From contig NC_043004.1 in the NCBI RefSeq assembly GCF_006345805.1, forward strand, positions 24,676,001-24,740,000: 64,000 nt of DNA. The letters run 5' to 3'. Of the stretch, positions 18,845-55,683 are shown in pieces. Positions within the stretch are counted from its first letter, which is position 1; each line of letters starts with the position of its first letter. Made by a program: the position numbers and the translations under genes. Source of the DNA: Octopus sinensis. Its lineage: Eukaryota. Under the pieces are notes generated by a model, which was not told the origin of the DNA, searched no databases, and was given only the letters and a program-made list of their open reading frames with translations.

Positions 18845-19380
18845 CGGCTAAAAGTCAGACAATAATATACATTTAATGCTTAATTTTGCAAAATAAATTC
18901 GTTCAAAATTATTTACCTCTTTGTTGCTATGTTTCAATGATAGATTTATATCTATAAATACCATTCTCTCATTAAACAGAGATACAGCTAGTTGATATAT
19001 ATATATATAAGCACACACAAAGAGTTTGTAGATTACAGTGAGTTTAGAAGCAATGAGGAATGGGAAATTAAAGTTTCAGGAAAATAATTCGAGACTAAAT
19101 CTTGAGACGATCGGCGGAAGTGAAGAAGAAAACAGGAAGTAAAAAAAGCGGAAGCGAAAGAGAGAGAGAAACAGAAAGTAAGACTACTAAATTTTTCTCC
19201 GTAAGACGGATTGAAAAGTCGAATATAATTGACATCGTTGGTGGAATTCTGGATTAAGCACCCCGTATAGGTACTACTTGAAAACAGTGGCCCCGGTGCG
19301 CGCATCCGCGCATCCACGCCAGCTAGTCGATCCTTACTTTGTGATTTTGTGTTATTTACTTTGTTTTTACAAAAATTATT

Positions 19381-19486
19381 GGCAATCTTTCGTTTGTAGT
19401 AGCACGTTTCCGTCGATCGCCAAATTGATAAAAGTTTTTTACGGAAATCATCGACGGAAACGTGCTACTACAAACGAAAGATCGCC
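19381..19486. repeat. Perfect 33-bp inverted repeat with 32-bp spacer (MITE-like)
   Basis: ATCTTTCGTTTGTAGTAGCACGTTTCCGTCGAT (19385-19417) is the exact reverse complement of 19450-19482. The duplicate is at 38214-38319. Confidence 0.92.
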
Positions 19487-19493
19487 TTGTGTC

Positions 19494-19650
19494 GTAACTT
19501 CGGTATAGGTACCGGATACATTTCAAGAAAGTGTTTTTTTTTTTTTATATATATATATGGGAGGTTAGGGTTAGGGCTAACCCTAACCCTAGAGAAAAGG
19601 GTTTCTGTTATCTTCGGAAATGTAAAGAAAGCCACTTCCGGTACGAAACA
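19494..19650. mobile_element. Small element with internal TTAGGG/CCCTAA repeats
   Basis: Homologous to 58406-58567, which has TIRs CGTAACTTCGGTATAAGT / GTACCTATACCGAAGGTTCCG. This copy carries GGTTAGGGTTAGGGCTAACCCTAACCC. Confidence 0.65.
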
Positions 19651-19924
19651 TCCGGTGATAATGTTGTCATCACACAGAAATATTTTTCTAAAAGTTTTTT
19701 GCAACAAGTGAACAACAACTGGTCAGAAGACGACCGACATTCATAATTTAAATATAAAACCTTTCTTTCATGCGTTCAAATACATCCGAATCAATACTTG
19801 AAACCAGAAAAAAAGTTTTAATGATTTCTATAATCTAAGTTTTCATTAATTCAAGAGGTAAGAGAACGAAAATCAACTTTCTAACTTCCTGCTTTTTCGC
19901 TGTTTTATTACATGCACATATACA

Positions 19925-20515
19925 ATGCGGTCACCAAGAAATATAATACAAAATAATTTATGTTTTCTCAGACAAAACATATCCGAACCTGATGTAAAAT
20001 TAATTAATGACAAGTTTCCTCAATTAAAAGAAACAGACGTTAATTTTCCAAATATTATGCGTTTTTTTATGGAGAAAAATGACGCGGATAGTTTTGATAA
20101 GCTTTTAGGATTTTTAGAAAAGGAATGCCTCAAAAAACATGTGGTACTGGCTTTGAAAAAAGATAGAAACGAATCAGAAGACACAGAGGCAGAGGACCAC
20201 ACTCAGATACAAACAAATATAAAGGAGCTGGATGTGAATTTACTCGGACGTATTCTACTGCGAGTTCTTGACGGATGGTTGCCAGTCGCTAAAGAGCTAG
20301 GAGTTACTGATCAACAAATTAAAAACTCCCGACGTGATTATTCCGATGATGAGTTGTGCAAGATAAACGTTTTTAACTGGTGGAGAAAAACAAACGGATT
20401 CCGTGAAAATGGGGTTGATTTTTTGCTGAATGTCCTTACAGAATACCCTGAATGTATTGTTGACTGCAGAAGTATGAGAGAGTTAATTAATTCAGTAAAC
20501 AGAAACGGAAACTAA
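19925..20515 (+). CDS. Death-fold adaptor-like protein: CARD-like N-terminus + C-terminal death domain (RAIDD/CRADD-like architecture), copy 1
   Basis: 196-aa non-repetitive ORF. Residues ~100-188 match the death-domain pattern (GWLPVAKELGVTDQQI...FNWWRK..G...VDFLLNVL). Residues 1-80 are helical and CARD-like (IIQNNLCFLRQNI...SFDKLLGFLEKE..KHVVLAL), followed by an acidic linker. It may be spliced at 20494/20495. Confidence 0.75.
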   Translation: MRSPRNIIQNNLCFLRQNISEPDVKLINDKFPQLKETDVNFPNIMRFFMEKNDADSFDKLLGFLEKECLKKHVVLALKKDRNESEDTEAEDHTQIQTNIKELDVNLLGRILLRVLDGWLPVAKELGVTDQQIKNSRRDYSDDELCKINVFNWWRKTNGFRENGVDFLLNVLTEYPECIVDCRSMRELINSVNRNGN

Positions 20516-20567
20516 ATAATAATGAACTGATTTTTTTTTTTTCTTTTTTGCGGTAAATCAACTCAAG

Positions 20568-20659
20568 ATAATGGACAGTCAACATCCATTGAAAAGGTTA
20601 CAAAAGCAATTAAAATTTTGGAAAAGAGAAAATATAGATAATAAATGGAAATTGACCAG
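20568..20659 (+). CDS. Candidate exon 2 of the death-fold gene
   Basis: Intron 20495-20567 has a GTAAAC donor, CTGAT branch-like site, poly-T tract and first AG at 20566-67. The exon is open in frame (IMDSQHPLKRLQKQLKFWKRENIDNKWKLT) and ends at donor CAG|GTCAGT. The duplicate is at 39416-39507. Confidence 0.45.
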
Positions 20660-22149
20660 GTCAGTGTGTTACATATATATTAGGCCTGAAATTTTGTTGA
20701 AGGCAATTAGTTGATTGAATGGACCTAACGATGATGATGATGATGATGACGCAAAGAAGCAGAAGAAATAATAGACACAAGGACAGCAACTTTAAGAAGT
20801 GCGAGTTAAACTTTCAACGTAAAGAACCGGAATGATCTGTCACAACTTGGGCTATTAAAAGGAACTCCATCTTAACTAATTCATGTCTATATATAACTAG
20901 CAGAAATACCCAGCGTTGCCCATTTTAAAGAACCTAAGGAAATTCAAGAATGCCTTTTAGATCTCTAAATAACATGAATCATGGACCATGCAGGCCTCAC
21001 CTCCTAGTAGCTGAGATACCAACTTTATATGTTAACTAGCAACTAAGCCCGATTTCACCCAGTCGATTTGGATGATGTGGTTGTAAAACCTGCTCTGTGT
21101 AAGCATTCGACTTGATTGGGTATGCTTATGTTAAAAAACAATTTTAGAATGACTTTTTTTCTGTCAAAACGCTGAAAATAACTGACCAACAAAAAAACAA
21201 CCAAGATTCAACCAAATCAAAAAATAAACCCAATTGCTAAGCAAACAAAGATTACCCATCCCACTTCCATTGTGCACACACACATTCACATACCCCCTTT
21301 TACATACACACACATATATTCACACAGTTGAAATGCTGTTTGATTTATTTTTTCAGCGTACAATTTTCATCATCCCACTACCAAGTATCACATCACCCCT
21401 TCCTTTCTCATTCAGAAACACAAGAGTATTATTATAGTAGATTATCTCGGTAACCATGGGAGCTATGAAAAAATACAAAGCCCAGCAACACCTCTGGATC
21501 ATTCTACACATCTGTGCAATTTTTCGTGCAATTCCACCCAGCCATTTGACCGTGAATCCCAAAATAAGAAAGTATTGCCCATGTCAAATTTATATATGTT
21601 TCCCATGTTATTGAAAATAATGAAATTCCTTTTAAATCTCTAAGTAAAATGAAACGTGGATTATGCAGTTCTCAACAGTAATTAGCTGAGGTACAAACTA
21701 TTAATGTCAATAACATTTTTTCTGGTGTTCTCACTGTTAAATTGTTAAAAACAAAAACAGATAGTTCTTTGTCTTTGCAGTTACCTTTATTTGTCAGTAA
21801 GTATTTGGAACACGTTGAACCTGAAAATGCATAAATTTGAGAAGAACCAGCCCTGCGGGCGCACCCCTCTAGTTAATAAAAATATTTAACAAAAATTCTA
21901 TCAGATGATGTCAGTATAAACACATGTATTGAAACAAATCCGGCAATCAATCACAGTTTTATTATCTAGAACTTTTAAATATACAATGTTTTGAGTGTGT
22001 CCTATGTAGAAATGAAAAGATTTTTGGGACTTTTAACATCCTACATATAATTGCCCATGAGAAAAGCAAAGTGAAGTCCAACAACCTTGAGAGACTGTAC
22101 TTGAGACTTGTTTATTAGATTTCTGCACCCCCCCATCATCCGAATTTGG

Positions 22150-22890
22150 ATCATAACTTTTAGAGAAATGGATATTTCTTAACGAAATTGTCTACAAATA
22201 TATACCTCGGATTATGTAGATTCCGAGCATATAGGATTTGGTGGTGGGGAACAATTGGGGCTTATTTTTGAAAACTATTCCCCACGCAGGAGTGTTTTGG
22301 AACAAGTCCATATTTGTTCCATTTTCTTTGTTGTGTGTTTGTGCATCAGTATATAACACTTAACTGTAGCTGTAAAATTTTGGGGGGGAATTGAAAATTG
22401 GCATGGGGAGCCCATTCATAGAAAATTTAATTAAAAAAATATCCGTTTTTCTGAAAGTTATGATCATCCAAAGTTGGTGGAACAGAAATCTGTAGTTATG
22501 CCGCTGGAGAAGAATATAAAAAATGAAAGTACTTTTAGAAATTCCTTTTTATCTGAAATAGTTACAACTGGATATTAAGTGTTAATAAGGTGAATTTTTC
22601 CAAAAATGTCCAAAATGCGTATTGGAAAATCAAGAAAAAGGTGTCTATATCCGTATGAAATTACCTTTTAAAATTCTTTAGACACACACATATTTCATTG
22701 CCTGCACAAAACAGAGAAAATGAAATAAATATGGATGACTTGTTCCAAAACATTCCCGAGTGCAGAACAGTTCTCAAAAATAACCCCCAATTGTTTTCTC
22801 CAAAAATCCCTATTTGCTCGGAATGTACATAGTTCGAGGTGTATTTGTAGACAATTTCATTAACAAATATCCATTTTCCTGAAAGTTAAG
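22150..22890. mobile_element. Foldback/non-autonomous DNA transposon with ~190-bp imperfect inverted arms
   Basis: 22155-22338 (TAACTTTTAGAGAAATGGATATTT...TTGGAACAAGTC) is reverse-complementary to 22705-22888. The duplicate is at ~40985-41718. Confidence 0.7.
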
Positions 22891-24498
22891 ACGAATATAC
22901 ATAATACAGAAATTGAGTTTTTTTTAATAGAAATTCTTAGTCTTTATGACTTACTCATTATTATTATAAGTCATGGTAGGAAAGGAATTTTCCACCATGT
23001 GTAATATTTTTTTAAAAAAGTTTTATGGGTGGGTACACAAGGAAGTCTTCCTTTCCCCACCAATTTTTAAATTTGGAATCTTTTTTTTTTAAGCAATAAA
23101 ACAAAAGTAACATATATGACAGGTGTGTAAAACATATTTCTGTGTACTTTCTCTCTTCATCTGGTTAAGCTATAGAAATCGTTGCGCACATACAAACATT
23201 CTCCAGGCAGCTGTTATTTTTAGCATATTGAGTTTCGTGGTGAGGGCTTCACATGCTGTGATCCTTTTGTTGTTTCACTATAAATTTACACATGCACAAA
23301 CGAACAAAACAGCTGTTCTTTATCACTTTTAGACAGGGGAGTGTGAAACAATTTTGTTGTTCTACATAGAAAATTTGAAATTGAAAATTTTTTATTTCCA
23401 TATTCTTAATCTCCATATTTTTCAACGTGGATTAAAAAAGAAAATTTTTGAAACAAATTAAAAATTAGTGTGGGAGGCAGAAATTCAAAATTTTGAAAAC
23501 ACGGTTTCTTGCATATTCAGAATCTCCATCATTGAAAACAGGAATCCGCTGGAAAAAAAAATCAGAAAGTTCGGTATCAGGGGTGGAGTGACTGTGCGCC
23601 AAGGTTCGCTGGAGAGGTGGGAGGTGAAATTTGAAAAATTTTAAACTTTGAAAAGGTGGTTTAAAAAAAAAATTGGTGGGGTAGTCAAATTTGAAAAGCT
23701 GGGTTTTTGTTTTGACATATTCGTAGTCTCTGACATCTAAAATGTTGGTATCAGAAAAAACTATTCTTCAAGGAAAGGTGCGATTCTACATTAGCCCTAC
23801 TTTCAGAAGTGCGGATTAAACTCGGAACGTAAAGAACTGGAATAATCTGTCGCTATTTAGTCTATTAAAGGGACATAACTCCATTTTAACTAATTCACGT
23901 CTATTTTTTCTTTATGTGTATGTGGAGGTAATTGGATTCATTTTTAATACATTTTAATGTTTCCCTCTCTCTCTTTCACACACACATACACTCTTTTATA
24001 GATATTCCTGTAGTAGAGTCGGAAATGTCGCACTTTTTTGGGACATGTATATTTTGTATGTTTCAATCGCCTTTGATTAGGATTCTAGGCATTCTTTCAA
24101 TATACTCCTCAGAGTTTATGACAACTCTGATAGGTATACTGAAAGAATGCTGGATTATATATATATAGATACATATCGTTTGTAGAACAGATCCAGAGAA
24201 GAAGCACACTCTAAGAAATAGAGTAGTCTATATTTTTTTCTGTGGTGAAGGCCAGTTTATGGGGATTTCCCGTCCATAAAGGATTTAAGTTTATGGTGTA
24301 TTGTCAGGCCCTTAGACTTCTTTAAAATAGACAAGTATCAAATACCATAGTATATATATTCTTTATTTGTTAAAATTATCTTCAATTGTAGAAGTATCTT
24401 AATTACTAAATAGTAGTCGATTAGCATATTCAGGGCCACAATACTGTAGACAAGGCCATTTTGAGCAAAGAAACATGCCTGGAAGAGTGGAGATAGCA

Positions 24499-25870
24499 GG
24501 ATGATGGTTCACTTGCATTAACCCTTTCATTACTGTATTTATTTTGAGATGCTCTGTGTTTCTTTCAATTACTATAAGCATAACAAAGAATTTAGTAAAA
24601 TATGTTAGTTATCATTTAGCAAGTGTTAGGAACATAAATTGTGACTATGGTTTGGTGGAAGATTTTAATTCAAAACTTATGAAAACAAAACATTTGTACT
24701 ACAGAGCCAGAGTCGGTTTCAGCCGGGTTGGTAATGAAATGGTTAAACAAGGCTACAAAGAGAAAGGCTTGGAGACACCACTATGAAAGGTTGCTAAATG
24801 AATGGGAGAAAGAGAGTCTACCAAATGTCGACCCAACAGTGGGACCAGCTATCTGAATTGACAGTACCTTGATAGATAAAGCAATTAAGGGTATGAAGAC
24901 AGGGAAAGCCTTTGTAGTAGTTGACTATGGTGTTGCCACACAAGTCATTGGGTATGACTCCTTCATGTATCACCTGGTTGACAATACTGGTGACTAGGCT
25001 ATAGCTGACACTGCCAGATATTTTGAGCATCTCTATGGTGATTCCTGATGGGCCGGGGGCTTTCCCTGTCTTCATACCCTTAATTGCTTTATCTACCAAG
25101 GTACTGTCAATTCAGATAGCTGGTCCCTCTGTTGGGTCAACATTTGGCAGACTCTCTTTCTCCCATTCATTCTCTTCATTTAGCAACCTTTCATAGTGGT
25201 GTCTCTAAGCCTTGTTTAATGCAAGTGAACCATCATCCATGTGGCCACATTTCTCTCCTATGACATCGCAATCCTCCCTCATGCACTGTCTTGCAACACA
25301 AAATACCTCAAGTCTTTGGTCCTCACGATGCAGAACATTGCTTTCCTTCTGGCTACATAAACCTGTCTCCTAGCTTCCTTTCTGGCAGTCAGATACAATT
25401 CCCTCCTCACTGCGGGAACCAAAACCGTAGCCTCCATGTATGCCCCCTGTATGTTGCTCAACATGCCCATTGAAGTTACTAACCACAAAGAGAGGGTCCT
25501 GTCATTCATCGACGAGGGTGTCATAAAATCAGTCTTTCTGTCCACTAGGTAGCCCCAGCTGAGAGAGTGGTTGCTAACCCAAGATGCAACACAAATCTAA
25601 TCTTAAGTATTCTATTGCAGACTCTTATCAACCAATTTCTCCACAAGAAGTATACCCACACACCTGACCCCTTCTGTGCTCCCTGCCCAGAAAATCTTAT
25701 GCATATGTTCTTTGCCTGTGAGGAACCTAGCAGAACCTCCTCTCCACCTTACTTCTTGGATGCAGCACAAATCTACACGTCTCTGTTCAAGCATGTCAAC
25801 AATCTCACCAGACCTACTTTTCAGTGTACCAACATTGAATGTGCCAACCCTGAGGGTGTGGGAGGTGTGG
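24499..25870 (-). mobile_element. Rearranged RTE-type LINE fragments (APE endonuclease and linker) with an inverted duplicate segment
   Basis: Translations TLRVGTFNVGTL...VDLCCIQEVRW (APE) and KGMKTGKAPGPSGI (pre-RT). Segment 24747-24910(+) is an inverted copy of ~25060-25215. The duplicate is at ~43326-44690. Confidence 0.8.
24522..24742. mobile_element. piggyBac-type MITE with TTAA TSD
   Basis: TTAA|CCCTTTCATTAC...GTAATGAAATGG|TTAA. The inverted LINE copy at ~25215 shows the empty single-TTAA site. The duplicate is at 43349-43569. Confidence 0.85.
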
Positions 25871-26340
25871 TCCAATGAGATCAACTGGAACCCTCGTCGT
25901 CGTAACCAACGGAGTGCCATGAATATATATGAACTAGAGCATCTGTCATATGACAGGTAACTTTGGAAGCACCCTTTTGACACCATGGGTAACAGAAAAT
26001 TATTATAATTTAACTTCTATTAAATATTTTGGTGATTATTACAAAATGAATACTAATTTTTAAAAGAATTATACCTTATATTAAAATTTTATAACCAACC
26101 AACCAACCAAATAATTGATTGCTTACTCAGTCAGTTGGTGAAATAGTCAGTCTGTTAATCTTCAAGCAATTCATCAAATCATTTTTTATCAGCTACCTTA
26201 TTGACTTGATATAACTTGCAAGTTAAGAAAAGAGAAATAAAATAAAATGTGAAGATCAATCGAATATTGGTTCTAAATTTTGGTACAAAGCCAGCAGCTT
26301 TGGGAGAGGGAATAAGTTGATTACATAAAGCCTAGTGCTC

Positions 26341-26761
26341 ATCATCATCATCATCATCATCATTTAGCGTCCGTTTTCCATGCTAGCATGGGTTCGACGG
26401 TTCTACTGGGGTCTGTGAAGCCAGAAGGCTTCATCAGGCCCAGTCAAATCTGGCAGTGTTTCTACGGCTGGATGCCCTTCCTAACGCCAACCACTCCGTG
26501 AGTGTAGTGGGTGCTTTTTACGTGCCACCCGCACTGGTGCCAGACAGAGCTGGCAAACGGCCACGAACGGATGGTGCTTTTTATGTGCCACCGGCACGAG
26601 GGCCAGGCGAGGCTGGCAACGGACACGAAACGGGGCGGTGCTGGCAACGGTCGCGAAACGGAAAGTTCTCTTACATGCCACCGGCACTGGTAACACATCT
26701 GCAATTTCCATTGATCGATTTCGATTCTGATCCTCACTTGCCTCAATGGGTCTTCACAAGC
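26341..26761 (-). mobile_element. Retroposon with (ATG)n tail, present only in unit 1
   Basis: (CAT)n followed by TTTAGCGTCCGTTTTCCATGCTAGCATGGG..., with internal GGTGCTTTTTA..TGCCACC repeats. The empty site GTGCTCAATTGC is at ~45154-45165 in unit 2. Confidence 0.85.
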
Positions 26762-27006
26762 AATTGCTACTTATTTCATTGACCCTGAAAGAATGAAAGA
26801 CAGAATTTGAGAGCAGATTGTAAGAACAGTATTTTGCTCAGCATGCTAATGAGTCTTCCAGCTCACTGCCTATAATTAGAAGATAAACTGGAGTTTGCAA
26901 CCATATAACACTTCTTCCTCACTATGGTGTTGAAAATGTTTGAAAATCATTTTGATTTTATTAAACATGGCAATTTGTCCCTATTACTATTTTCAATTCT
27001 CAAAAG

Positions 27007-27115
27007 ACCCTTCAGCGAGACAGAGGAATGGATCCATGTAATCCAACTAACCATCTTCCAGCATGCCATAGGATTCCAGGATCTGAGTTGACAGGTCTTA
27101 CACAACTTGAGCAAG
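27007..27115 (+). other. Candidate downstream exon of the death-fold gene
   Basis: Acceptor TTTTCAATTCTCAAAAG and donor AAG|GTAAGG bound a 109-nt block with no repeat character. The duplicate is at 45405-45513. Confidence 0.35.
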
Positions 27116-27910
27116 GTAAGGTGTTGAGAAATACAGCTGGTTATTTTACTATTTTCTTCTTAATAACAAAAGTGGAAAGTATTTGAAACAATTGTAACAT
27201 CATCATTTAATGTCTGTTGTCCATAATGGCAGAGGCTGGATGGGTTGACCAGGGCTGGCTGGCTGGAAGGCTACACCAGACTCCAGTCTGATTTGGCATG
27301 GATTCTTATTTTGTTATTGTCAACAAGGAGTTAAACATAGAGGGGAGAAACAAGGACAGACAAAGGGGTTAAGTCGATTACATCAACCCCAGTTCATAAC
27401 TGGTACTTAATTTACAAACCTCGAAAGGATGAAAAGCAAAATCCACCTTGGTGGAATTTGAACTCAGAAATGTAACAGCAGACGAAATACTGCTAAGCAT
27501 CTTGCCCAGCGTGCTAACGTTTCTGCCAGCTCGCCCGCCTTTGTGATGATTTGGCATGGTTTCTACGACAGGATACCTTTCCTAATGCCAACCACTTTGA
27601 AAGTGGTCAAGTATCACCGGTAAGGGTACCATTTGCATGACACCAGTATCTGCTACAATTGCGATTTTACTTGGCTTGATGAGTCTTCTCAAGCACTACA
27701 TAATGCCAAAGATCTGTCATTCGTCATTGCCTCAGCGAGGCCTAACACTCGAAACGTGTTTTTTACATGCCAGTTATGTGCAAATAATATGAAAAAAATT
27801 GGTCTAAATACGTTTTAGTGAAGCCACACATAGTAATCATATTATGACTTAATGAAGGACTACAACTAAGATACAGTTTATCTGTATGTGCATTTATGCC
27901 TTATTAATTC

Positions 27911-28120
27911 ATTAATCCTTCAGTATACAGATTACTGTCAAACGTAATGCTTATTTATTCACATTGTATAAAATTAATCATGTAGCTTCAAGATTTCAAT
28001 GATGTGATTGTTAATTTTTAGAATAGCATTGTAGGATAGGTGTGAGAGGACAGACCTAGCCAGTTTGAACATAGAACAGGAAGACTATTTGGACCAGATA
28101 AAGCTGGTTTAAATGCTAGA
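27911..28120 (-). mobile_element. Degenerate piggyBac-type MITE (family of 56697-56916)
   Basis: Reverse-complement similarity to 56697-56916 along its length. Confidence 0.55.
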
Positions 28121-28267
28121 GAGTGGTGCTCTGAGCGCCCCACTAGCACGGGGCACAAGTTAAACATTAACAAATATTAAAAATAACAAAACGAGGATGT
28201 ACATATGAAATGTATAAACTTGATGCTCAGTAAAGGTGGAAAAAAAGAGTTTTTTTTTTTGCTTTGT

Positions 28268-29297
28268 GCATCATCATCATCATTGTTCGACCGTGGTCGA
28301 GACAATGGAATTTACTATGTTACACCAGACTTCATGGTCCATGATAGCATTACGGAGGTCCTGTTGCTGGATTCCTGTATCCCTGGAGATTACATCAGGG
28401 TAGGAGAGTGTGCGCCCTCTGGTATTGCGAGTAGATGGCTTCCAGAGGAGGAGAGTAGAAATTACTTCTTTTTCAGCTCTACAACAATGTCCAGCAAACT
28501 GGACTCTCCTACCTTTCACAAGAGATGACACAGGTGGTAATTTCCCATATATTTGCATTTTGGTTGGATGGCGCTTCCACGAGAGATTTTGAGCTCTCAT
28601 AAGGAGGCGAGTGTAGGTTCCATCCAACCACCTCAAGCTTCTTTGATAACGTCCAGGTTTCTGAGCCATATAGTAGAATTGGTTTGACTGTGGCTTTGAA
28701 TATTTCAAGTTTAAAGTCTCTACTTAGATTTGATGACCAGATCTTATGCATGTCATTACAGGCTGACCAGGCCATACCCTTTCTAGTTAGAAAGTCTTTT
28801 CCAGATGATGATATGTATGACCCAAGATATTTATAATCAGAAACCATATTTAAAGGCGCACTGTTGAGAGTGTGGATGATGCAATCACTGTTGGACAGGC
28901 ACTTGTTTATGTATTCAGTTTTGGCCTCATTGAGGTAAAGACCTACACAATTTGAGGCTTGTTCAAGAGATTGTAAAAGAGACTGGGCATTGGAGAGAGA
29001 ATCACTGATAAGAGCGATGTCGTCAGCAAAGTCAGTGTCTGTCAAGTACTCAGCTGGGTGTCTGGAACTTCTTGGTTTTATTTCAAAGCCCTTGCCAGAG
29101 ATGGTATCAACTGACATACGTAGCACATAATCAACAACAATGATGAAAAGAAATGGGGCGAGTGTGTCTCCCTGCAGTATTCCGGCTTTGATTGAGAAAG
29201 ATGATGTTTCTCCATCAGGGGTTAAGATGGTTGAAGACGTATCTGTGTAGAGGACCTTGATGGCAGAAATAATTTTGTCTGGTATCCCATAGAGCAA
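28268..29297 (-). mobile_element. 5'-truncated RTE-clade LINE (RT domain and C-terminus, (TGA)n tail)
   Basis: GILQGDTLAPFLF, DFADDIALI, YKYLGS and LLYGSETW motifs, one frameshift, and a TGATGATG tail right after the stop. The duplicate is at ~46682-47710. Confidence 0.9.
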
Positions 29298-29779
29298 CGC
29301 CCTCCATCATAAAAAGGAGAAAGGAAAAGTCCAGGAACAGTCTGTATTTGATTACATGGTTAAAGTGACCAGAAGTGGAGAGAGATAGAAAAGCTGTTTT
29401 TGGCAGGACAGGAGAGTGCGAAGATGGCCAGTGTGTGTGTGTGTTTGTTTATGTGTGTTATGTATGCATAAGGTAGTGTTGTTGAGCAGGTTACTGGCAG
29501 GGATTCAATTCATTGGTGAGAAGTGAGGTGAAGAGTGTTGCTGTGTGTATGTATGAGGGTGTGAGGATGTGTGTGCATTATAAAATAGACCGAATAGAGC
29601 TTTGCATTTGCTTTTCTGTGGGTATGTATAAATGTCTGGTTTATTTCTCTCAGTATGTTTTTCTGATGAGGAAAAGTCATTATATTTATCCAGAAATTGA
29701 TCAATCCAAGGCTATCTAATTCATTTTATGAATTTCTGTCAGCCTACTCCCTCACTTTCAATGTGTGTATTATAATACT

Positions 29780-32454
29780 TATGCGTACACTATAAGCGTG
29801 AAGACACTGAGAAAGGTGGCGAAGATGATTTTCACGGGTGTCGCTTGCAATGAGTATATCATCGACATAGGCAAACACAAAATCAAGACCGCGGACAACC
29901 TCATCAACGAAGAGCTGGAAAGTGCTGGTAGCATTCCGCAAACCAAAACTCGTATATAAAAACTCAAAAGACCCAAAAGTAATTGCAGTTTTCGGAACAT
30001 CGGCTGGGTTGACCGGTATTTGGTGATAAGTGCGTATAAGATCGACTTTTGAAAAAGTGGTACAACCATGAAGATTTGCTGAAAAGTCCTGAAGAATTCT
30101 TATTGGGTAGCGATCGGCTATCATTACCGCATTGAGGCGTCAATAATCTCCTACTGGGCGAAAATCAGACTCCCCTGTTCGCGCCAAGTGAAGGGGAGAC
30201 GCCCATTGGCTGGTGGAGGGGCATATTAGGCCAAGTTGGAGCATGTGCTCAAACTCGGCCCTAGCCGTTTTTAGACGGTCAAGCACAAGGTGCCGTGGGC
30301 ACGAAAAAACAGGCAGCCCAGTGGTGGTGAAAAAATGAAGGGTCGAGTGGGTAGGCTTTGCCGGCTGAAAGGTAATGTCCACTAGCTCCGGAAATGAAGC
30401 CAAAAGAGAATGAAAGGCGTCTCCAGAGGTGGCAACAAAAAATGTTGGGCTAAGAACCGCATTGGTGGAACTCCTGGTCAGCGTGGAGAGCGACGTAGTA
30501 CTGTCAAGAAGCCTCCGACGCCTGACATCTACCAATAGATTAAACCGATCCAAGAAATCAGCACCGAGAATAGGATGCGGGATGTCAGCGATGATGAAAA
30601 CCCATTGAAAATCTCGACGAAGATTAATGTCGAGGCATAGTGAAATCTGACCAATATAGGAGACAAATCAATGGCATGCAAAACAATTGAGGAACGCTAG
30701 GGCTTGTCTGCAGTCAGATGAAGAGGCCAAATGCTACAAGAACCAGTGTCTACCATGAAGAATTTCTTCGACACCAGATCTTTGACGAAGAATGCACGAT
30801 TTGTAGAAAGAGAAAAGGAAGAAGGTGGCGTGCTCAACTTCTCCGGATTTAGTTTAACAAGAGTTTGAAATTGCACAGCTGGATACACTTGTTTGCCTTT
30901 TCGGCAAACTTTAAGTTGTACCAGCACAAGCCAGAACGCTGCCCAGAGGAACAAGAAACAGAGCCACTCTGACTACGACTGTGTGAACGACGCCTATTCC
31001 CACGGCACGGATCATCCATGCATCGTGTAAGCGCAGTTATTTTATCTACTAAAGAATTATGTGTCAGAGAAGAAGCTGTCAGAGGGGTCTCGGTACACGC
31101 GCACAAGCTACATGATGAAGGTGGACCAGAAAATTCCAAGATTTTGTCGGCCATCATGTCAATTTGGTCAACAGTGTTAGACTCCAGGGCTGTGGCCAAA
31201 ATTGTCTGCACGTTGGCAGGCAACCTGGAGAAAAATATCTTGCGCAGCAGAGGCGCGTCTGCTGAGTTCCCACTTAATTCCCTTAAACGGCACAGGAATT
31301 GTGAGGGTGTTCTCTCCCCCAACTGTTCATCAGACATGAGCTCATTGAACTTGCTCTCCTCCGACCATGTGTTATGTCGGAGAATTACTGCTTAGACTGA
31401 CGCATAGGTGGCATCTGGGTTGGAACTCATTATGAGATCCCAGGCCGATGTGGCAAGTTGAGGAGGCAAGCTACAGTAGAAGAGATGTAACTGCTGATTG
31501 AGAGAGACGGCATGGGCGGTAAAGTGGGACTCAACTTGGGCAAACCAAAGGCCCGCATCTCCCGTGAATAAAGGCAAACCCGGTCCAGACATGTTTGTTC
31601 GAAACGCCTGTCACAGAGCAAAGGGAAACAAGTAGAAGCAAAACAACGAGAAACGGAGAAAACTAGTGAACTGACAAAAAGCTATGTTTGTGGACTGGTG
31701 TGTGTGTACAAAAAAACAGAAAGGCAAAAAAAAATTTTTTTTTTTTTTGTAAGAACAATTTTTTCAATAATGTACTGAGTGTAGTGGAGAAAACTTTTTT
31801 TTTTTGTACGCACTTTCTGCCATCCTGAAAGAGAAAAAAAAAAGAGAGTGAGAGAAAGAAATTAAAAAAAAAAGAAAACACAAGTTGTCAACGCACGTGT
31901 GTGCTAATGTATATAAGTTTGTGTTCTGTTTCTGTGCCTTTTCTTCATTTTATCGGCGTGGACACCATGTGCCGGCTAGCATGTTCGTATCACGTCGGGG
32001 TCACCAGTTGTAACAAGATGACAGTTTCAGGAACACTTGAGGGGAGTCTGATCTTGTCACATACAAGTCAAAAAGGAACTAAAAATCCAGCTGTCTTCAA
32101 TAACAATAAATAACACTTTATTCTTCGGGTTCACAGGTAAAATATATACATATATATTTCTTAAAGGCGAACCGGCAGCCAAGTCCACAGGACTGTTTAC
32201 ATATGTTCATTCGGGTGAGCCAAGAAGATACAGTCTCCATTCCCGCTTCGAAGAGAGAGCTTCTCTATGCGTAGGGTTTTCCCTGAGAGAAGTTTTAGCC
32301 ACGTCCATTCGTTAGGGCTGCTCTTCCAAAAAGGAAGATTTAGTGAAGACACTTTCTATTTGCAGTTCATGCGCATAAGGGAACTTTCAGCGCCTACTGA
32401 AAGTAATCCAACTCTGCACATGGGCGCTGAAACTTCCACAATAGCGTCACTACA
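29780..32454 (-). mobile_element. 3'-truncated Ty3/Gypsy LTR retrotransposon (5' LTR, tRNA-Trp PBS, gag, protease, partial RT)
   Basis: LTR 32009-32454 is bounded by TGTAG...TTACA on the minus strand. PBS TGGTGACCCCGACGTGAT is at 31989-32006. Gag shows WFAQVESHF and LGERTPSQFL, protease VDTGS, and [25 protein letters not shown]. Frameshifts and stops are present. Confidence 0.92.
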
Positions 32455-32872
32455 AGTGATTTAAAGCAGTTTGACAATTTAGTGTTTATTTTCAGCATAT
32501 AGGCATATATACCTTCTGCACCCTTAATTATAATTGTATTTTATACTATTGTAAACCTCTGAAGAGAGTAATGCAAGGCCCTCTCTTCCGAAATTCACTT
32601 GTCCATGATGAAAAATATTCAACCAGTATCAGTATGTTGGTGATGCTGTGCATGGGTATGTGTGTATATATACATGTGAGAATGTATGTGTATGAGTTTG
32701 TATGTCTACACAGGCATGTGTGTATGTGTGAAGGATTTGTGCATGCAGTGGATGTGTATGTATTATATGGGGTGTGCAAGTGATGTATGTAGGTGTTGAA
32801 GATGAATAAAATGTTTTTAATTTGAAAAGAAACTTAAAAAAAGAACTTTAAAATTTTTTTAAAAGCATGCAT

Positions 32873-33014
<142 letters not shown>

Positions 33015-33028
33015 GAGACGTTAGATTT

Positions 33029-35040
33029 CTAATCCATGTGAACACGTTTATGGTTCAATAAGTTACCTTTCTGAGAGAAATTTTTACCACATGTATCACA
33101 ACGGTATGGCTTTTCTCCAGTATGAATATGTTTATGGGTCACTAAGTTACTCTTTTGAGAGAAAGTCCTACCACAGATATCACATTGGTGAGGTTTCTCA
33201 CCTGTGTGAACACGTTTGTGTTTCAACAAATTACTATTTTTCAGAAATGCTTTACCACAAATATCACAATGGAATGGTTTCTTTCCTGTGTGATTAAGTC
33301 TATGCAAGGAAAATGAATTACTACCACAAAATGTTTTATCACAAATATCACAATGATATTGCTTTCCTTCTGTGTGAATATGTTTGTGTTTGGATACAGA
33401 ATCCTTATCTGAAAAAGTTCTGCCACAGATATCACAATGGTATGGTTTTTCTCCTGTATGAATGCGTCTATGTTTCAATAAAGTACAACTTCGAGCAAAT
33501 TTCATGCCGCATATCTCACATTCATATGGTTTCTCTCCTGTATGAATACGTTTGTGTTGAGTTAAATGACCATTTGTGGCAAAAGCTTTACCACACAGAC
33601 CACACTGGTATGGTTTTTCACCAGTATGAGTACGTTTATGCCTCAATAAATGACTATTTCGAAAGAATGCGTTACCGCAAATATCACAATGGTACTGCTT
33701 TGTTCCAGTATGAATACGTTTGTGATTATACAAATACTGACTTGTAGAGAACTTTTTACCACATATATCACAATGGTAACGTTTTTCTCCTGTATGAATA
33801 AGTTTATGGCATCGAAAATAACTCTTATTGGAGAACACTTTACCACAGATATCACAGTGATATGGTTTTTCTCCTGTGTGAATATGTTTGTGGTTAGATA
33901 AACAATCATTAGTAGAGAAATTTTTACCACATATGACACAATGGTATGGTTTTTCTCCTGTATGAACACGCCTATGATTCATTAAATTATTATTTACAGA
34001 GAATGCTTTGCCACAGATATCACAATGATATGGTTTCTCCCCTGTGTGAATACGTGCATGGTTCAACAAATTACTATTTTTAGAAAAAGCTTTGCCACAA
34101 ATATCACAGTGAAATGGTCTCTCTCCTGTGTGTTTAAGCTTATGTAACGATAAAGAACTATAATCGGAGAATTTTTTATCACAGATATCACAATGATATG
34201 GTTTCTCTCCTGTGTGAATACGTTTGTGCGTGGATAAACCACTACTAACTGTAAATGTTTTACCGCAGATATCACATTGGTATGGTTTCTCTCCTGTGTG
34301 AATACGTTTATGTGTAGATAAAGAATGGTTAATAGAAAAAGCTTTACCACATATTTCACAACGGTATGGTTTCTGGTCCAAGTGAATTTGTTTGTGTGTA
34401 AATAAAGAACTATTTGCAGGGAATGTTTTGCCACAAATGCCACAACAATATGGCTTCTCTCCTGTGTGAGTGCGTTTGTGCCTTGATAAAGAACTATTAA
34501 CAGAGAAAGTTTGACCACAGATATTACAACGGTATGGTTTCTCTCCTGTGTGACTACGTCTATGGATCAATAAATTTCCATTTTGAAGAAATTCTTTACC
34601 ACAAATATCACAGCAATATGGTTTTTCTCCTGTATGAGTACGTTTGTGTTTAGACAAACTGCTATTTACAGATAAAGTTTTACCACAAATATCACACTGG
34701 TTTTGTCTCAAATTCAAGTGAATACGTTTGTGTTTAGTTAAATGATGTTTTAGAGTGAACACTTTATCACACATATCACAGTGATATGGCTTCTCACTTG
34801 TATGATTATGTTTGTGTTCAGATGAATTTTTATTTGTAGAGAACTTTTTACTGCAGATTTCATGCTCGTACACTTCTGAATCTGTGTGAATAGATTTATG
34901 TTGAATTAAATATTTTTTTAACTTAAAAGACTTCCCACAAGTTTCACACTCATGTGATATCTTTTTGTTTGATAGGAGACATCTTTCTTACCATATTGTC
35001 TTTCATTAGGAATTGGACTCTTAGCAAGTTTCTTCCTCAT
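33029..35040 (-). CDS. C2H2 zinc-finger array protein (~670 aa, 22 canonical + 1 degenerate fingers), copy 1
   Basis: Tandem CxxC...HxxxH fingers with TGEKPY linkers. The ATG at 35040 is taken from copy 2. Copy 1 has T5 instead of T6 at ~34962, a frameshift or sequencing error that shortens the ORF call to 614 aa. Splice acceptor TTTCAG|GA lies at 35393/35392 upstream of the ATG. Confidence 0.9.
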
Positions 35041-36130
35041 AATATAAAATTTTTGTTCGCAAAATAGAAAAGCTATAATTCTTCTTGAATTTTCATAGAA
35101 ATATTTCTTTAAATATTATCAACAAAGTGCATGTTTTCTTCAGTTGTAAATTTTGTGAGATTCCAAAGAGGTCTTAGTTGTAAGCGATTGTTTTTTTTCT
35201 TCAACTTAATCTTGACACTATCACAGAAATAATTTGGAAGTTATACAGGTGCAATCAATATTGGAAATTACTCAATTCACAAGAAATATTTCAGTGATAG
35301 AACTTAAGTTATTCAAACAAGCAAGATCCCTTATATCCTTGTTAATGTTAATCTTTAGTTTTCAATATGCCATCTCAATAACATCAGATATCCTGAAATA
35401 TATAAAAAGAGTATAGTCAAATATAATAATAGATAAAATTGTTAAAAATATTATTAGTGACCAGCATATAAAATAGACCTATTAAGGTGAATTCATATAT
35501 AGAGATTTATTATAGTACAAAATACAGAGGGGACTGTGCCTATATACTGAAAGCAAGGGAGTAGGCTGGCAGGAATTCATAAAATAATTCAGATAGCTTG
35601 GATTGATCCATTTCTGGATTAGTCTAATGATTTTTTCCTCATCAGCAAAGTATACTGAGGGAAGTAAGTGAGACATTTATACATACCCACAGAAAAGCAA
35701 ACACAAAGCTGCGATTACATACAATACCATGTATGCATTTGGTCAGAGTAGTACAGAAGTGACTAAACTGTCTTGAAGTGCATGGAAAATATTCAAATAT
35801 AATAATAAAGGATAAAATCATTAAAACTTTTATCAGTGGCTAGCATATAAAATAGACCCAACAGAGCTTTGCATTTGCTTTTCTGTGGGTATGTATGTCT
35901 GATTTATTTCTCTCAGTATGTTTTTCTGATGAGGAAAAGTCATTATATTTATCCAGAAATTGATCAATCCAAGGCTATCTGAATCGTTTTATGAATTTCT
36001 GTCAGCCTACTCCCTCACTTTCAATGTGTGTATTATAACAGTGATTTAAAGCAGTTCGACAATTTAGTGTTTATTTTCAGCATATAGGCTTATATACCTT
36101 CTGTGCCCTTAATTATAATTGTATTTTATA

Positions 36131-37253
36131 CTATTGTAAACCTCTGAAGAGAGTAATGCAAGGCCCTCTCTTCCGAAATTCACTTGTCCATGATGAAAAA
36201 TACTCCACCAGTACTGTTCTGACCTTGTCTACAGAATTCATATTTTTCCCGTCCAAATAATTTTGAAGACTGCAGAATAAATGATTATCAGATGGGGAAA
36301 TGTCCTGTGAATATGGTGGCTGGAGCATCATTTCCCATTCAAACTGCTCCAGCCTTTGGAATGTCTTCCTCACTGCATGTGACTGAGGATTATCCTGATG
36401 GAAGAACACCATCTTGAAAGCAAAGATGGTAGCTTTTCTTCAAACCACTTAAGCTGTTTGTTGTAGATCTCCTTTGTTATCATTTGGTTTGGGTTTAAAA
36501 GTTCAAAGTGGACTAAACCTTTCATATCCGATCAAATAGATAACATCACGTTACGTGGATGAAGACCTTCTTTAATCTGGAGTGCTTATGTTTCTCCTTT
36601 CCCTACCCACTTGACATTTTTATAGAGAACCCATTTCTTGTCACCAGTCACTATTCAGACCAAACAAGGTCCATTCGTAAGATGTGACAGCAAAGAAGAG
36701 CGCACATTCACTCTCTGCTCGTGATCAGCCTCGAAAAGTTTGTGAGGAACCCATTGACCCAATTTGCTGACTTTTCTGATGGTACACAGGTGTTGATGAA
36801 TGGTTGAATGACCAAATCCAAGCTTCTCTGCTAGTTCCTCAACAGTTACGATGAGATTTTGCTCCACTAGGGTTTGCAGGACATCCTTGTTGAGCTCTAC
36901 AGATCTTCTAGGACAAGGCCAATCTTCTAGGCTGTAGTTTCCGGCTTGGAATTTCTGGTACTTCCGTTGTCACTGGCTTATGCTTATTGTTCAATCCCCA
37001 TATACTGCATTAATATTCCTCACACATAAAGCAAAATATGCCGAATAATTTTCTTTGTCACTTCTATTATAGCTTTGAAAAAATAGCTGCTAAAATCGAA
37101 CTGCTCTCTTCAAAACTTGCACTAAGAATTAGTACAAGGTAAAATTACTATCTGTTTTTATAGTAAGTTGATGCAGGTAATTTATCCTGTCCTCCTCCAA
37201 CTTTTCGTTTACGCAACTGAAGAAAACTGAATTATATATGAGATGACCCAATA
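36131..37253 (-). mobile_element. Degenerate mariner transposon
   Basis: WVPH, VTGDKKWVLY, HQDN and PPYSQDISPSDNHLF motifs of mariner transposase, plus a TIR-like TATTGGGTCATCTCATATATAA at ~37232-37253. The duplicate is at ~54138-55289. Confidence 0.88.
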
Positions 37254-37580
37254 TATGACAAACAGTTTAAAGAACAATGAATCTGTGTAGGGACAACAAG
37301 TCGAGTGCAGGAGTTATTTGAAGATCACGTTAATTGTAATCTAATAAGGCCATGTTAAAGAAAATTTCTATATATTCAATACAGAAAATTGTAATCATAT
37401 TAATGAACTATAAACGAAGACAGGTGTTTTAATATTCTTAAATGACTACTTGACTATAATAATATGTACACCAACAACTTTACAGAGTATACTGGATGCA
37501 TTTTTGCAGTATTAGTCTGTGTATTTTTGTACGATAAAAGTTGACAGTGACTTCTAAGTTTCAGCTTACTGCCAGTTACG

Positions 37581-37843
<263 letters not shown>

Positions 37844-38756
37844 GGGACCACGACAATAGACAAGTACCACAGTGAGTTTAGAAGCAATGAGGAACGGGAA
37901 ATTAAAGTTTCAGGAAAATAATTCGAGACTAAATCTTGAGACGATCGGCGGAAGTGAAGAAGAAAACAGGAAGTAAAAAAAGCGGAAGCGAAAGAGAGAG
38001 AAAAACAGAAAGTAAGACTACTAAGTTTTTTTCCGTAAGACGGATTGAAAAGTCGAATATAATTGACATCGTTGGTGGAATTCTGGATTAAGCACCCCGT
38101 ATAGGTACTACTTGAAAACAGTGGCCCCGGTGCGCGCATCCGCGCATCCACGCCAGCTAGTCGATCCTTACTTTGTGATTTGTGTTATTTACTTTGTTTT
38201 TACAAAAATTATTGGCAATCTTTCGTTTGTAGTAGCACGTTTCCGTCGATCGCCAAATTGATAAAAGTTTTTTACGGAAATCATCGACGGAAACGTGCTA
38301 CTACAAACGAAAGATCGCCTTGTGTCGTAACTTCGGTATAGGTACCGGATACATTTCAAGAAAGTGTTTTTTTTTTTTAATATATATATATGGGAGGTTA
38401 GGGTTAGGGCTAACCCTAACCTAGAGAAAAGGGTTTCTGTTATCTTCGGAAATGTAAAGAAAGCCACTTCCGGTACGAAACATCCGGTGATAATGTTGTC
38501 ATCACACAGAAATATTTTTCTAAAAGTTTTTTGCAACAAGTGAACAACAACTGGTCAGAAGACGACCGACATTCATAATTTAAATATAAAACCTTTCTTT
38601 CATGCGTTCAAATACATCCGAATCAATACTTGAAACCAGAAAAAAAGTTTTAATGATTTCTATAATCTAAGTTTTCATTAATTCAAGAGGTAAGAGAACG
38701 AAAATCAACTTTCTAACTTCCTGCTTTTTCGCTGTTTTATTACATGCACATATACA

Positions 38757-39365
38757 ATGCGGTCACCAAGAAATATAATACAAAATAATTTATGTTTTCT
38801 CAGACAAAACATATCCGAACCTGACGTAAAATCAATTCATGACAAGTTTCCTCAATTAAAAGAAACAGACGTTAATTTTCCAAATATTATGCGTTTTTTT
38901 ATGGAGAAAAATGACGCGGATAGTTTTGATGAGCTTTTAGGATTTTTAGAAAAGGAATGCCTCAAAAAACATGTGGTACTGGCTTTGAAAAAAGATAGAA
39001 ACGAATCAGAAGACACAGAGGCAGAGGACCACACTCAGATACAAATAAATATAAAGGGGCTGGATGTGAATTTACTCGGACGTATTCTACTGCGAGTTCT
39101 TGACGGATGGTTGCCAGTCGCTAAAGAGCTAGGAGTTACTGATGAAATTAAAAAGTCCCGACGTGATTATTCCGATGATGAGTTGTGCAAGATAAACGTT
39201 TTTAACTGGTGGAGAATAAGAAAAGGATTCGATAAAAATGGGGTTAAAGATTTGCTGAAGGCCCTTAGAAAATACCCTGAATGTATTGTTGACTGGAGAA
39301 GTATGAGAGAGTTAATTAATTCAGTAAATGTAATTCAAAACTCAACAGAAACGGAAACTAAATAA
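38757..39365 (+). CDS. Death-fold adaptor-like protein (CARD-like + death domain), copy 2
   Basis: 202-aa paralog of 19925-20515 with 19 amino-acid substitutions, a one-codon deletion and a 17-bp indel at the 3' end. Confidence 0.75.
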   Translation: MRSPRNIIQNNLCFLRQNISEPDVKSIHDKFPQLKETDVNFPNIMRFFMEKNDADSFDELLGFLEKECLKKHVVLALKKDRNESEDTEAEDHTQIQINIKGLDVNLLGRILLRVLDGWLPVAKELGVTDEIKKSRRDYSDDELCKINVFNWWRIRKGFDKNGVKDLLKALRKYPECIVDWRSMRELINSVNVIQNSTETETK

Positions 39366-42300
39366 TAATGAACTGATTTTTTTTTTTTTCTTTTTTTGCG
39401 GTAAATCAACTCAAGATAATGGACAGTCAACATCCATTGAAAAGGTTACAAAAGCAATTAAAATTTTGGAAAAGAGAAAATATAGATAATAAATGGAAAT
39501 TGACCAGGTCAGTGTGTTACATATATATTAGGCCTGAAATTTTGTTGAAGGCAATTAGTTGATTGAATGGACCTGACGATGATGATGATGATGACGCAAA
39601 GAAGCAGAAGAAATAATAGACACAAGGACAGCAACTTTAAGAAGTGCGAGTTAAACTTTCAACGTAAAGAACCGGAATGATCTGTCACAACTTGGGCTAT
39701 TAAAAGGAACTCCATCTTAACTAATTCATGTCTATATATAACTAGCAGAAATACCCAGCGTTGCCCATTTTAAAGAACCTAAGGAAATTCAAGAATGCCT
39801 TTTAGATCTCTAAATAACATGAATCATGGACCATGCAGGCCTCACCTCCTAGTAGCTGAGATACCAACTTTATATGTTAACTAGCAACTAAGCCCGATTT
39901 CACCCAGTCGATTTGGATGATGTGGTTGTAAAACCTGCTCTGTGTAAGCATTCGACTTGATTGGGTATGCTTATGTTAAAAAACAATTTTAGAATGACTT
40001 TTTTTCTGTCAAAACGCTAAAAATAACTGACCAACAAAAAAACAACCAAGATTCAACCAAATCAAAAAATAAACCCAATTGCTAAGCAAACAAAGATTAC
40101 CCATCCCACTTCCATTGTGCACACACACATTCACATACACACACATATATTCACACAGTTGAAATGCTGTTTGATTTATTTTTTCAGCGTACAATTTTCA
40201 TCATCCCACTACCAAGTATCATATCACCCCTTCCTTTCTCATTCAGAAACACAAGAGTATTATTATAGTAGATTATCTCGGTAACCATGGGAGCTATGAA
40301 AAAATACAAAGCCCAGCAACACCTCTGGATCATTCTACACATCTGTGCAATTTTTCGTGCAATTCCACCCAGCCATTTGACCGTGAATCCCAAAATAAGA
40401 AAGTATTGCCCATGTCAAATTTATATATGTTTCCCATGTTATTGAAAATAATGAAATTCCTTTTAAATCTCTAAGTAAAATGAAACGTGGATTATGCAGT
40501 TCTCAACAGTAATTAGCTGAGGTACAAACTATTAATGTCAATAACATTTTTTCTGGTGTTCTCACTGTTAAAATTGTTAAAAACAAAAACAGATAGTTCT
40601 TTGTCTTTGCAGTTACCTTTATTTGTCAGTAAGTATTTGGAACACGTTGAACCTGAAAATGCATAAATTTGAGAAGAACCAGCCCTGCGGGCGCACCCCT
40701 CTAGTTAATAAAAATATTTAACAAAAATTCTATCAGATGATGTCAGTATAAACACATGTATTGAAACAAATCCGGCAATCAATCACAGTTTTATTATCTA
40801 GAACTTTTAAATATACAATGTTTTGAGTGTGTCCTATGTAGAAATGAAAAGATTTTTGGGACTTTTAACATCCTACATATAATTGCCCATGAGAAAAGCA
40901 AAGTGAAGTCCAACAACCTTGAGAGACTGTACTTGAGACTTGTTTATTAGATTTCTGCACCCCCCATCATCCGAATTTGGATCATAACTTTTAGAGAAAT
41001 GGATATTTCTTAACGAAATTGTCTACAAATATATACCTCGGATTATGTAGATTCCGAGCATATAGGATTTGGTGGTGGGGAACAATTGGGGCTTATTTTT
41101 GAAAACTATTCCCCACGCAGGAGTGTTTTGGAACAAGTCCATATTTGTTCCATTTTCTTTGTTGTGTGTTTGTGCATCAGTATATAACACTTAACTGTAG
41201 CTGTAAATTTTGGGGGGGAATTGAAAATTGGCATGGGGAGCCCATTCATAGAAAATTTAATTAAAAAAATATCCGTTTTTCTGAAAGTTATGATCATCCA
41301 AAGTTGGTGGAACAGAAATCTGTAGTTATGCCGCTGGAGAAGAATATAAAAAATGAAAGTACTTTTAGAAATTCCTTTTTATCTGAAATAGTTACAACTG
41401 GATATTAAGTGTTAATAAGGTGAATTTTTCCAAAAATGTCCAAAATGCGTATTGGAAAATCAAGAAAAAGGTGTCTATATCCGTATGAAATTACCTTTTA
41501 AAATTCTTTAGACACACACATATTTCATTGCCTGCACAAAACAGAGAAAATGAAATAAATATGGATGACTTGTTCCAAAACATTCCCGAGTGCAGAACAG
41601 TTCTCAAAAATAACCCCCAATTGTTTTCTCCAAAAATCCCTATTTGCTCGGAATGTACATAGTTCGAGGTGTATTTGTAGACAATTTCATTAACAAATAT
41701 CCATTTTCCTGAAAGTTAAGACGAATATACATAATACAGAAATTGAGTTTTTTTTAATAGAAATTCTTAGTCTTTATGACTTACTCATTATTATTATAAG
41801 TCATGGTAGGAAAGGAATTTTCCACCATGTGTAATATTTTTTTAAAAAGTTTATGGGTGGGTACACAAGGAAGTCTTCCCTTCCCCACCAATTTTTAAAT
41901 TTGGAATCTTTTTTTTTTAAGCAATAAAACAAAAGTAACATATATGACAGGTGTGTAAAACATATTTCTGTGTACTTTCTCTCTTCATCTGGTTAAGCTA
42001 TAGAAATCGTTGCGCACATACAAACATTCTCCAGGCAGCTGTTATTTTTAGCATATTGAGTTTCGTGGTGAGGGCTTCACATGCTGTGATCCTTTTGTTG
42101 TTTCACTATAAATTTACACATGCACAAACGAACAAAACAGCTGTTCTTTATCACTTTTAGACAGGGGAGTGTGAAACAATTTTGTTGTTCTACATAGAAA
42201 TTTGAAATTGAAAATTTTTTATTTCCATATTCTTAATCTCCATATTTTTCAACGTGGATTAAAAAAGAAAATTTTTGAAACAAATTAAAAATTAGTGTGG

Positions 42301-47710: not shown

Positions 47711-48186
47711 GCCCTCCATCATAAAAGGAGAAAGGAAAAGTCCAGGAACAGTCTTATTTGATTACATGGTTAAAGTGACCAGAAGTGGAGAGAGATAGAA
47801 AAGCTGTTTTTGGCAGGACAGGAGAGTGCGAAGATGGCCAGTGTGTGTGTGTGTTTGTTTTGTGTGTTATATGCATAAGGTGGTTTGTTTGAGCAGGTTA
47901 CTGGCAGGGATTCAATTCATTGGTGAGAAGTGAGGTGAAGAGTGTTGCTGTGTGTATGTATGAGAGTGTGAGGATGTGTGTGTCATTATAAAATAGACCG
48001 AATAGAGCTTTGCATTTGCTTTTCTGTGGGTATGTATAAATGTCTGGTTTATTTCTCTCAGTATGTTTTTCTGATGAGGAAAAGTCATTATATTTATCCA
48101 GAAATTGATCAATCCAAGGCTATCTAATTCATTTTATGAATTTCTGTCAGCCTACTCCCTCACTTTCAATGTGTGTATTATAATAC

Positions 48187-51044: not shown

Positions 51045-51063
51045 TATACTGAGACGTTAGATT

Positions 51064-53047
<1,984 letters not shown>

Positions 53048-55636: not shown

Positions 55637-55683
<47 letters not shown>

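Follow-up and report, generated by a model that had tools for sequence, protein, structure and literature searches.

A multi-allelic hypervariable patch on the death domain of a tandemly duplicated Octopus sinensis gene

Organization of the duplicated locus

The window analysed here, a 64,000 nt stretch of the Octopus sinensis genome, contains a tandem duplication with a unit of ~18.8 kb; in each unit an open reading frame (ORF) lies close to the start, and the opposite strand bears a C2H2 zinc-finger gene (Table 1). By blastn between the window halves the two units align in five blocks of 94-99% identity, and copy 2 is without counterparts of 26342-26760 and 30140-30654. No N gap is present at the junction between the copies (37841-37868); an N gap ends 727 nt before the start of copy 1. 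The copies are separated by 99 indels concentrated at 29000-33800, and this crowding suggests a poorly polished stretch. The zinc-finger gene of copy 2 differs from that of copy 1 by 19 indels and only 2 clean substitutions; its broken ORF is probably either a consensus error left by poor polishing or a pseudogene. Between 36000 and 37499 there are 18 clean inter-copy substitutions, a density above that of 21000-28000; this unevenness (noted for 36000-37600) suggests that blocks differ in age or conversion history.

Table 1. Features of the window; positions are counted from its first nucleotide and residues follow copy 1
Feature	Position	Strand	Remarks
Tandem copy 1	19035..37621		Death-domain gene, retroelement remnants, C2H2 zinc-finger gene; blastn between window halves
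Tandem copy 2	37869..55677		blastn between window halves
Inter-copy junction	37841..37868		Short unique filler behind (AT)n tract; filler occurs once in the window
Copy 1 ORF	19925..20515	+	196 aa; CARD-like domain, linker, death domain; in-frame stops upstream
CARD-like domain, shortened	19925..20173	+	Residues 1-83
Death domain	20216..20509	+	Residues 98-195; H1 104-111, H2 118-124, H3 129-138, H4 142-157, H5 163-173, H6 181-195
Hypervariable patch, copy 1	20387..20443	+	Residues 155-173; H4 end 20387-20395, H4-H5 loop 20396-20410, H5 20411-20443
Cys181	20465..20467	+	Trp in copy 2 and 5/5 homologues; start of H6
Copy 2 ORF	38757..39365	+	202 aa
Hypervariable patch, copy 2	39216..39272	+	
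17 nt found only in copy 2	39327..39343	+	Different C-terminal tails past H6
C2H2 zinc-finger array, copy 1	33029-34774	-	581-aa ORF
Copy 2 counterpart of C2H2 array	about 51060-53047	-	325-aa ORF left
Reverse-transcriptase and gag-like retroelement remnants	25600-31400, 44400-49800, 62150-63290		Duplicated with the unit or solitary

Just 5' of the copy 1 ORF, positions 19257-19700 are a high-copy repeat with very high contig depth, which holds a 37-nt inverted repeat (19381-19417 and 19450-19486) and a TTAGGG/CCCTAA palindrome; it resembles a Helitron-related non-autonomous element and may be the source of the promoter or 5' UTR of the ORF.

Residues 1-190 of copy 2 are 100% identical to XP_036361174.1 (LOC118764508), an uncharacterized protein of O. 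sinensis. The RefSeq model has another 7-residue tail whose last six residues are coded from 39469, ~140 nt further on, which implies that a 3' splice was predicted; none is evident in the unspliced ORF (39326-39490). A gap of about 17 nt, the size of the segment found only in copy 2, also occurs in contigs of public runs. For a possible intron at 19859-19971 (GT..AG), no joint was found in the contigs of run X1, which may be RNA or DNA. When residues 1-191 are compared by codon, the two copies differ by 19 amino-acid substitutions, one in-frame 3-nt indel (Q130) and one synonymous change; residue numbers are those of copy 1, and copy 2 is shifted by -1.

Predicted fold and family of the encoded protein

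The structure of the protein was modelled by AF2 on a 7-sequence alignment with a pLDDT of 81.7, a single-sequence model (pLDDT 44) being set aside; the model has two helical domains joined by a loose linker. The C-terminal domain is predicted to have the six helices of a death domain (DD), with pLDDT of 80-91 across residues 101-190. Residues 96-189 superpose on the DD of RAIDD with a Z of 11.0 (rmsd 2.4, 90 aligned residues, 14% identity), and across the solved DDs of RAIDD, Fas, TNFR1, RIPK1 and FADD Z ranges from 9 to 11, with Fas (10.4) tied with RAIDD. Residues 1-83 match CARDs with Z of 8.3-8.8, the value of 8.8 being to a CARD chain from the Apaf-1/caspase-9 CARD entries (rmsd 2.6, 81 aligned).

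Sequence searches are weaker for the single protein than for its family. Pfam Death (PF00531) gives copy 1 14.8 bits (E=0.031), below the 22.6 cut-off, and does not list copy 2; the homologues P0002, the closest (25.7), and P0007 (46.2) pass it. Foldseek returned no match at E ≤ 0.001, its best rows being DDs at E 0.12-0.3, and phmmer of the DD alone against the PDB returned only PIDD (E 0.13-0.18). An exhaustive HMMER search retrieved 7 proteins including the gene itself: four CARD + DD proteins of 218-245 aa, one DD-only protein at 47% identity, and one amphioxus multi-DD protein, which was excluded from alignments. The profile of 7 sequences matches the RIPK1 DD at 3e-8, the NLRC4 CARD at 5e-6, the FADD DD at 4e-5, and the PIDD and CRADD DDs at 9e-4 (CRADD 8.7e-4); the RIPK1 match spans the patch. 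An earlier sequence-only reading had taken the C-terminal region for a DD, and this identity is borne out by the model's Z of 9-11 to known DDs together with the family profile match to RIPK1; that reading made no mention of the N-terminal CARD-like domain.

The assignment of that N-terminal domain leans on the homologues, because the signal in the protein itself is weak: hhalign probability is 2.7% and there is no Pfam CARD match, while Pfam CARD is above cut-off in 4/5 homologues. The domain is 20-27 residues shorter than the homologues' CARD. In the ESM Atlas the DD clusters score 0.90-0.91 (residues 95-196); death effector domain (DED) clusters score 0.81 over residues 1-85, a lead only, and for the N-terminal domain the model favours a CARD. 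On the model, the architecture is RAIDD/CRADD-like, with a CARD-like domain and a DD and no other domains. No further octopus orthologue was found among annotated proteins of 66-429 aa.

RAIDD/CRADD, the PIDDosome adaptor, shares the N-terminal CARD(-like) and C-terminal DD arrangement and a length of about 200 aa; the octopus gene differs in its 14% identity by structural alignment, its shortened CARD, and a family profile that prefers the RIPK1 and FADD DDs over that of CRADD. The DDs of RIPK1, FADD, Fas, TNFR1 and PIDD have the same fold (Z 9-10), whereas the octopus gene is without the kinase, DED, receptor or LRR part of these proteins. The closest sequences (E 6e-14 to 7e-4) are the CARD + DD relatives P0003 and P0005-P0008 and the DD-only P0002 (P0002 and P0005 are from Argonauta hians), which carry the same DD signature positions; they differ in being only 26-47% identical and of no known function, and their CARD is full and Pfam-positive. 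P0006 and P0008 are near-identical CARD + DD relatives that differ mainly in the CARD, plus one H4-H5 loop position; the hypervariable site may thus differ between family members.

The hypervariable patch and its haplotypes

Eleven of the 19 substitutions fall within residues 155-173, exactly as the sequence-only reading had listed them: K155I, T156R, N157K, R160D, E161K, D165K, F166D, N169K, V170A, T172R and E173K. G158, F159, N162, G163, V164, L167, L168 and L171 are unchanged. The same reading had described a charge-switching patch with its W, G, V and LL positions kept; the charge switching stands, as 10/11 changes alter charge and 4 reverse it, with a net patch charge of -1 in copy 1 against +5 in copy 2, but V170 is one of the changes, and W153 is situated just short of the patch. 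By nucleotide, the patch has 14 substitutions per 57 nt (24.6%), against 9 per 516 nt (1.7%) in the remaining ORF and 16 per 6,698 nt (0.24%) outside the ORF over the initial 7.3 kb of the duplication. When the 23 substitutions of the ORF were placed at random, no 57-nt window received 14 of them in any of 200,000 trials (maximum 12), and 11 residue changes in 19 were reached in 1/200,000. The densest 57-nt window outside the ORF, among 17,211 aligned nt, holds 8 substitutions, or 4 without those within 10 nt of an indel.

In the model the patch takes in the final turn of H4, the loop between H4 and H5, and H5 in full, which agrees with the earlier placement in the helix 4-5 loop and helix 5. 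That the variable residues might be buried or scattered was checked: the changes cluster on polar positions, with 11/12 polar positions and 0/7 hydrophobic or Gly positions changed (Fisher P 1.6e-4), classes that are defined on five homologues only. Among polar DD positions outside the patch 3/37 differ (P 1.4e-7 versus the patch); H1, H2, the H4 body and the polar positions of the H5-H6 loop and H6 are identical between the copies. The kept H5 residues 164, 167, 168 and 171 are spaced as on a buried helix face, where exposure is read from homologue polarity and helix periodicity and not from computed accessibility. Among distant homologues the patch is not unusually variable (pairwise identity 0.39, versus 0.26-0.51 elsewhere), and the ancestral polarity of the changes is not informed by them, 7 sites matching copy 1 and 8 matching copy 2.

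In the accessible text of a review of death-fold assembly (PMC11874512), the type IIa interface is formed by H4 and the H4-H5 loop and type IIb by the H5-H6 loop and H6; the H5 body is named there in none of the three types. The proposal that the patch occupies a DD interaction interface therefore holds in part: residues 155-162, with 5 changes, lie in type IIa, whereas 6/11 changes are on the H5 body, outside the canonical types.

Contigs from 4 of the 24 listed public runs (X1, X2, X3 and X10) were compared at the patch. X1 has three patch contigs: one identical to copy 1 (depth 60.2), one of copy 2 type with all 14 letters (55.3) and a third (41.8) with 15 differences and 11/14 copy 2 letters. 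X3, possibly the assembly's own sample, likewise has three, with no copy 2 letters (36.5, by subtraction), of copy 2 type (28.9), and with 8/14 copy 2 letters (28.8); the third types of X3 and X1 carry different letter sets. In X10, which has another organism label, a single contig shows the 11-site pattern of the X1 third type, and in X2, of which 76% was covered, the copy 2 type alone was seen, its depth being roughly half that of the flank. The 4 runs thus hold at least four patch haplotypes, two of them common to different organism labels, while flanks differ well under 1% among the runs' contigs; the X10 flanks are so close that trans-species polymorphism is not claimable. The two third types (haplotypes C and D) are defined by the copy 2 letters among the rows listed; with other sites assumed equal to copy 1, they form intermediate steps at codons 165 and 166, which both have two hits, and the four-gamete test fails for 4 site pairs, a hint that alleles recombine.

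It is highly improbable that the contrast between the copies is an assembly artefact, either as uncollapsed alleles or as a consensus error in the patch. Flank divergence of 0.24% is allele-like, the indels mostly at 29000-33800 hint at poor polishing, and the proximity of copy 1 to the N gap would fit such an origin; however, X1 and X3 each contain the two versions of the patch as distinct contigs, the copy 2 version recurs in X2, and the junction is gapless with unique filler. Provided that every run represents a single animal, three types of comparable depth do not fit one diploid locus and indicate a real duplication or copy-number variant; even with a false tandem, hypervariability at the patch would stand, as an allelic feature.

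Decay of copy 1 as a duplicate under relaxed constraint is considered very unlikely. It could account for Cys181 where Trp is otherwise invariant, and would be consistent with the altered C-terminal tail and shortened CARD; relaxation, however, predicts even divergence at the flank level and not a 100-fold excess in 57 nt, the ORF is intact with the patch core kept, and other haplotypes vary at the same sites.

Selection on the patch and its possible driver

All 14 substitutions in the patch are non-synonymous, with P from 0.026 (kappa 1) to 0.005 (kappa 6), and at each of three two-hit codons every path is non-synonymous. Over the whole ORF the count is 22/23 (P 0.031-0.003), and outside the patch 8/9, which is not significant; pN is 5.2% and pS 0.9% (one event) for the ORF, and pN reaches 33% in the patch. 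The synonymous test has few events and its window was chosen post hoc.

Under a neutral origin, the patch would be a short tract acquired from an older paralogue by gene conversion or introgression, or else the product of a local mutation burst through template switching. Its sharp boundaries, its share of transversions (9/14, against 6/16 in the flank) and the mosaic haplotypes with their four-gamete failures are in keeping with such an origin, and codons 165-166 can alternatively be aligned as two 3-nt indels. Against it, with a donor of this divergence 4 or more synonymous differences are expected but none occurs (P 0.0065 for omega 1, 1e-4 for omega 0.5), no conversion donor was found within the window, no inverted or direct template exceeds chance (longest 8-9 nt, ~8 expected), and the core positions are skipped; this origin is accordingly improbable. 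The best account of the patch, with modest P values and a post hoc window, is selection for change on one face: the locus carries a multi-allelic hypervariable DD face, which does not stem from an assembly error and goes beyond a single switch between two copies. Of the earlier proposal, a specificity switch that would give the two copies different partners or escape a pathogen inhibitor, the pattern supports selection; at least four haplotypes fit ongoing diversification better than a single partner switch.

Based on analogy with known death-fold adaptors, the protein would be a two-domain adaptor whose DD joins an oligomeric DD platform and whose CARD-like domain either brings in a CARD caspase or competes for one. 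On the statistics above, one exposed face (the H4 end, the H4-H5 loop and outer H5) is probably under diversifying and balancing selection, such that several patch alleles coexist, and the young tandem duplication would let one chromosome carry two of them. The driver would most probably be a foreign, rapidly evolving binder of this face, whether a pathogen antagonist evaded by the alleles or a ligand baited by them, while faces used in host assembly would be kept. This arms-race reading, in which the patch has diversified under a foreign binder, probably from a pathogen, is given even odds as a whole (roughly 0.5).

A host-internal cause is judged unlikely, but it has to be weighed against the foreign driver. 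The patch would then be a specificity switch, with alleles or copies paired to co-evolving variants of an octopus DD receptor through the type IIa face, or part of an allorecognition-like pair. The position of residues 155-162, the four charge reversals with their swing from -1 to +5, and a duplication that permits divergence are all compatible with such pairing. The foreign driver is favoured over it because the haplotypes number more than two, the remaining assembly faces are kept, and more than half of the substitutions, being on H5, are off the canonical interfaces. The complementary IIb face (H5-H6 loop, H6) has 0/10 polar differences, and so no matched change for self-assembly; a longer DD-bearing relative was not found among annotated octopus proteins of 430-2000 aa, in a weak search. 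Three points speak against the foreign driver: the 5/11 changes in the type IIa face fit a change of host partner equally well, distant homologues show no unusual variability at the patch, and NleB, the bacterial DD-targeting mechanism in the accessible text of PMC11874512, acts on H2 and type Ib and not on the patch.

A more specific version of the arms-race reading is tentative: the helix 5 face may be an MHC-like or TRIM5-like sensor or decoy patch on a copy-number-variable, multi-allelic adaptor, which would detect or evade pathogen or non-self proteins and couple this to caspase activation via the CARD-like domain. TRIM5alpha v1, MxA loop L4 and the MHC peptide-binding groove are short exposed stretches with a non-synonymous excess and several coexisting alleles. 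The octopus patch resembles them in all three respects; it differs in lying on the DD of a signalling adaptor, and its opposing molecule is only postulated.

Death-fold adaptors are usually regarded as conserved wiring, and immune recognition in cephalopods is poorly known. Lophotrochozoan CRADD is described, in the accessible part of PMC11463336, as conserved with a dN/dS of 0.91, in contrast to a pN/pS near 6 between the octopus copies, and is proposed there as a conserved activator of mollusc CARD caspases. The same part gives FADD and DED caspases a dN/dS above 1, so there is precedent for positive selection on death-fold genes in lophotrochozoans. On octopus CRADD the accessible portions of two sources disagree: PMC9389742, in which PIDD1 and caspase-2 but not CRADD are found in bobtail squid, states that it is absent from octopus, and the supplement of PMC11463336 marks it as present in O. 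bimaculoides, with no accession among the 23 'Octopus' matches there.

In the literature that came up on the DDs of RIPK1, FADD, Fas, TNFR1 and PIDD, no multi-allelic DD surface like the octopus patch was met. A search for LOC118764508 gave 0 matches, and by title or start of abstract no hypervariable or multi-allelic DD adaptor in cephalopods was found in sources other than subscription journals and some supplements. The fold and architecture are thus known, while multi-allelic variation on such an adaptor appears to be undescribed. With 33% divergence at non-synonymous sites and none at synonymous sites, several alleles and a young duplication, this surface of 19 residues would be a site of strong current selection; its natural allelic series provides bait for the opposing protein, would connect specificity with helix 5, a DD face mostly outside the canonical interfaces, and could yield a marker of disease resistance in a farmed species.

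Variation is also seen outside the patch. The X2 and X10 contigs each have about 20 extra letters somewhere within 19594-20464, in either the UTR or the ORF. The four extra-patch differences listed for the X10 ORF (20072, 20081, 20294 and 20301) are all G>A, non-synonymous and charge-changing (E50K, D53N, E124K and G126E); selected variation may therefore extend to the CARD-like domain and H2.
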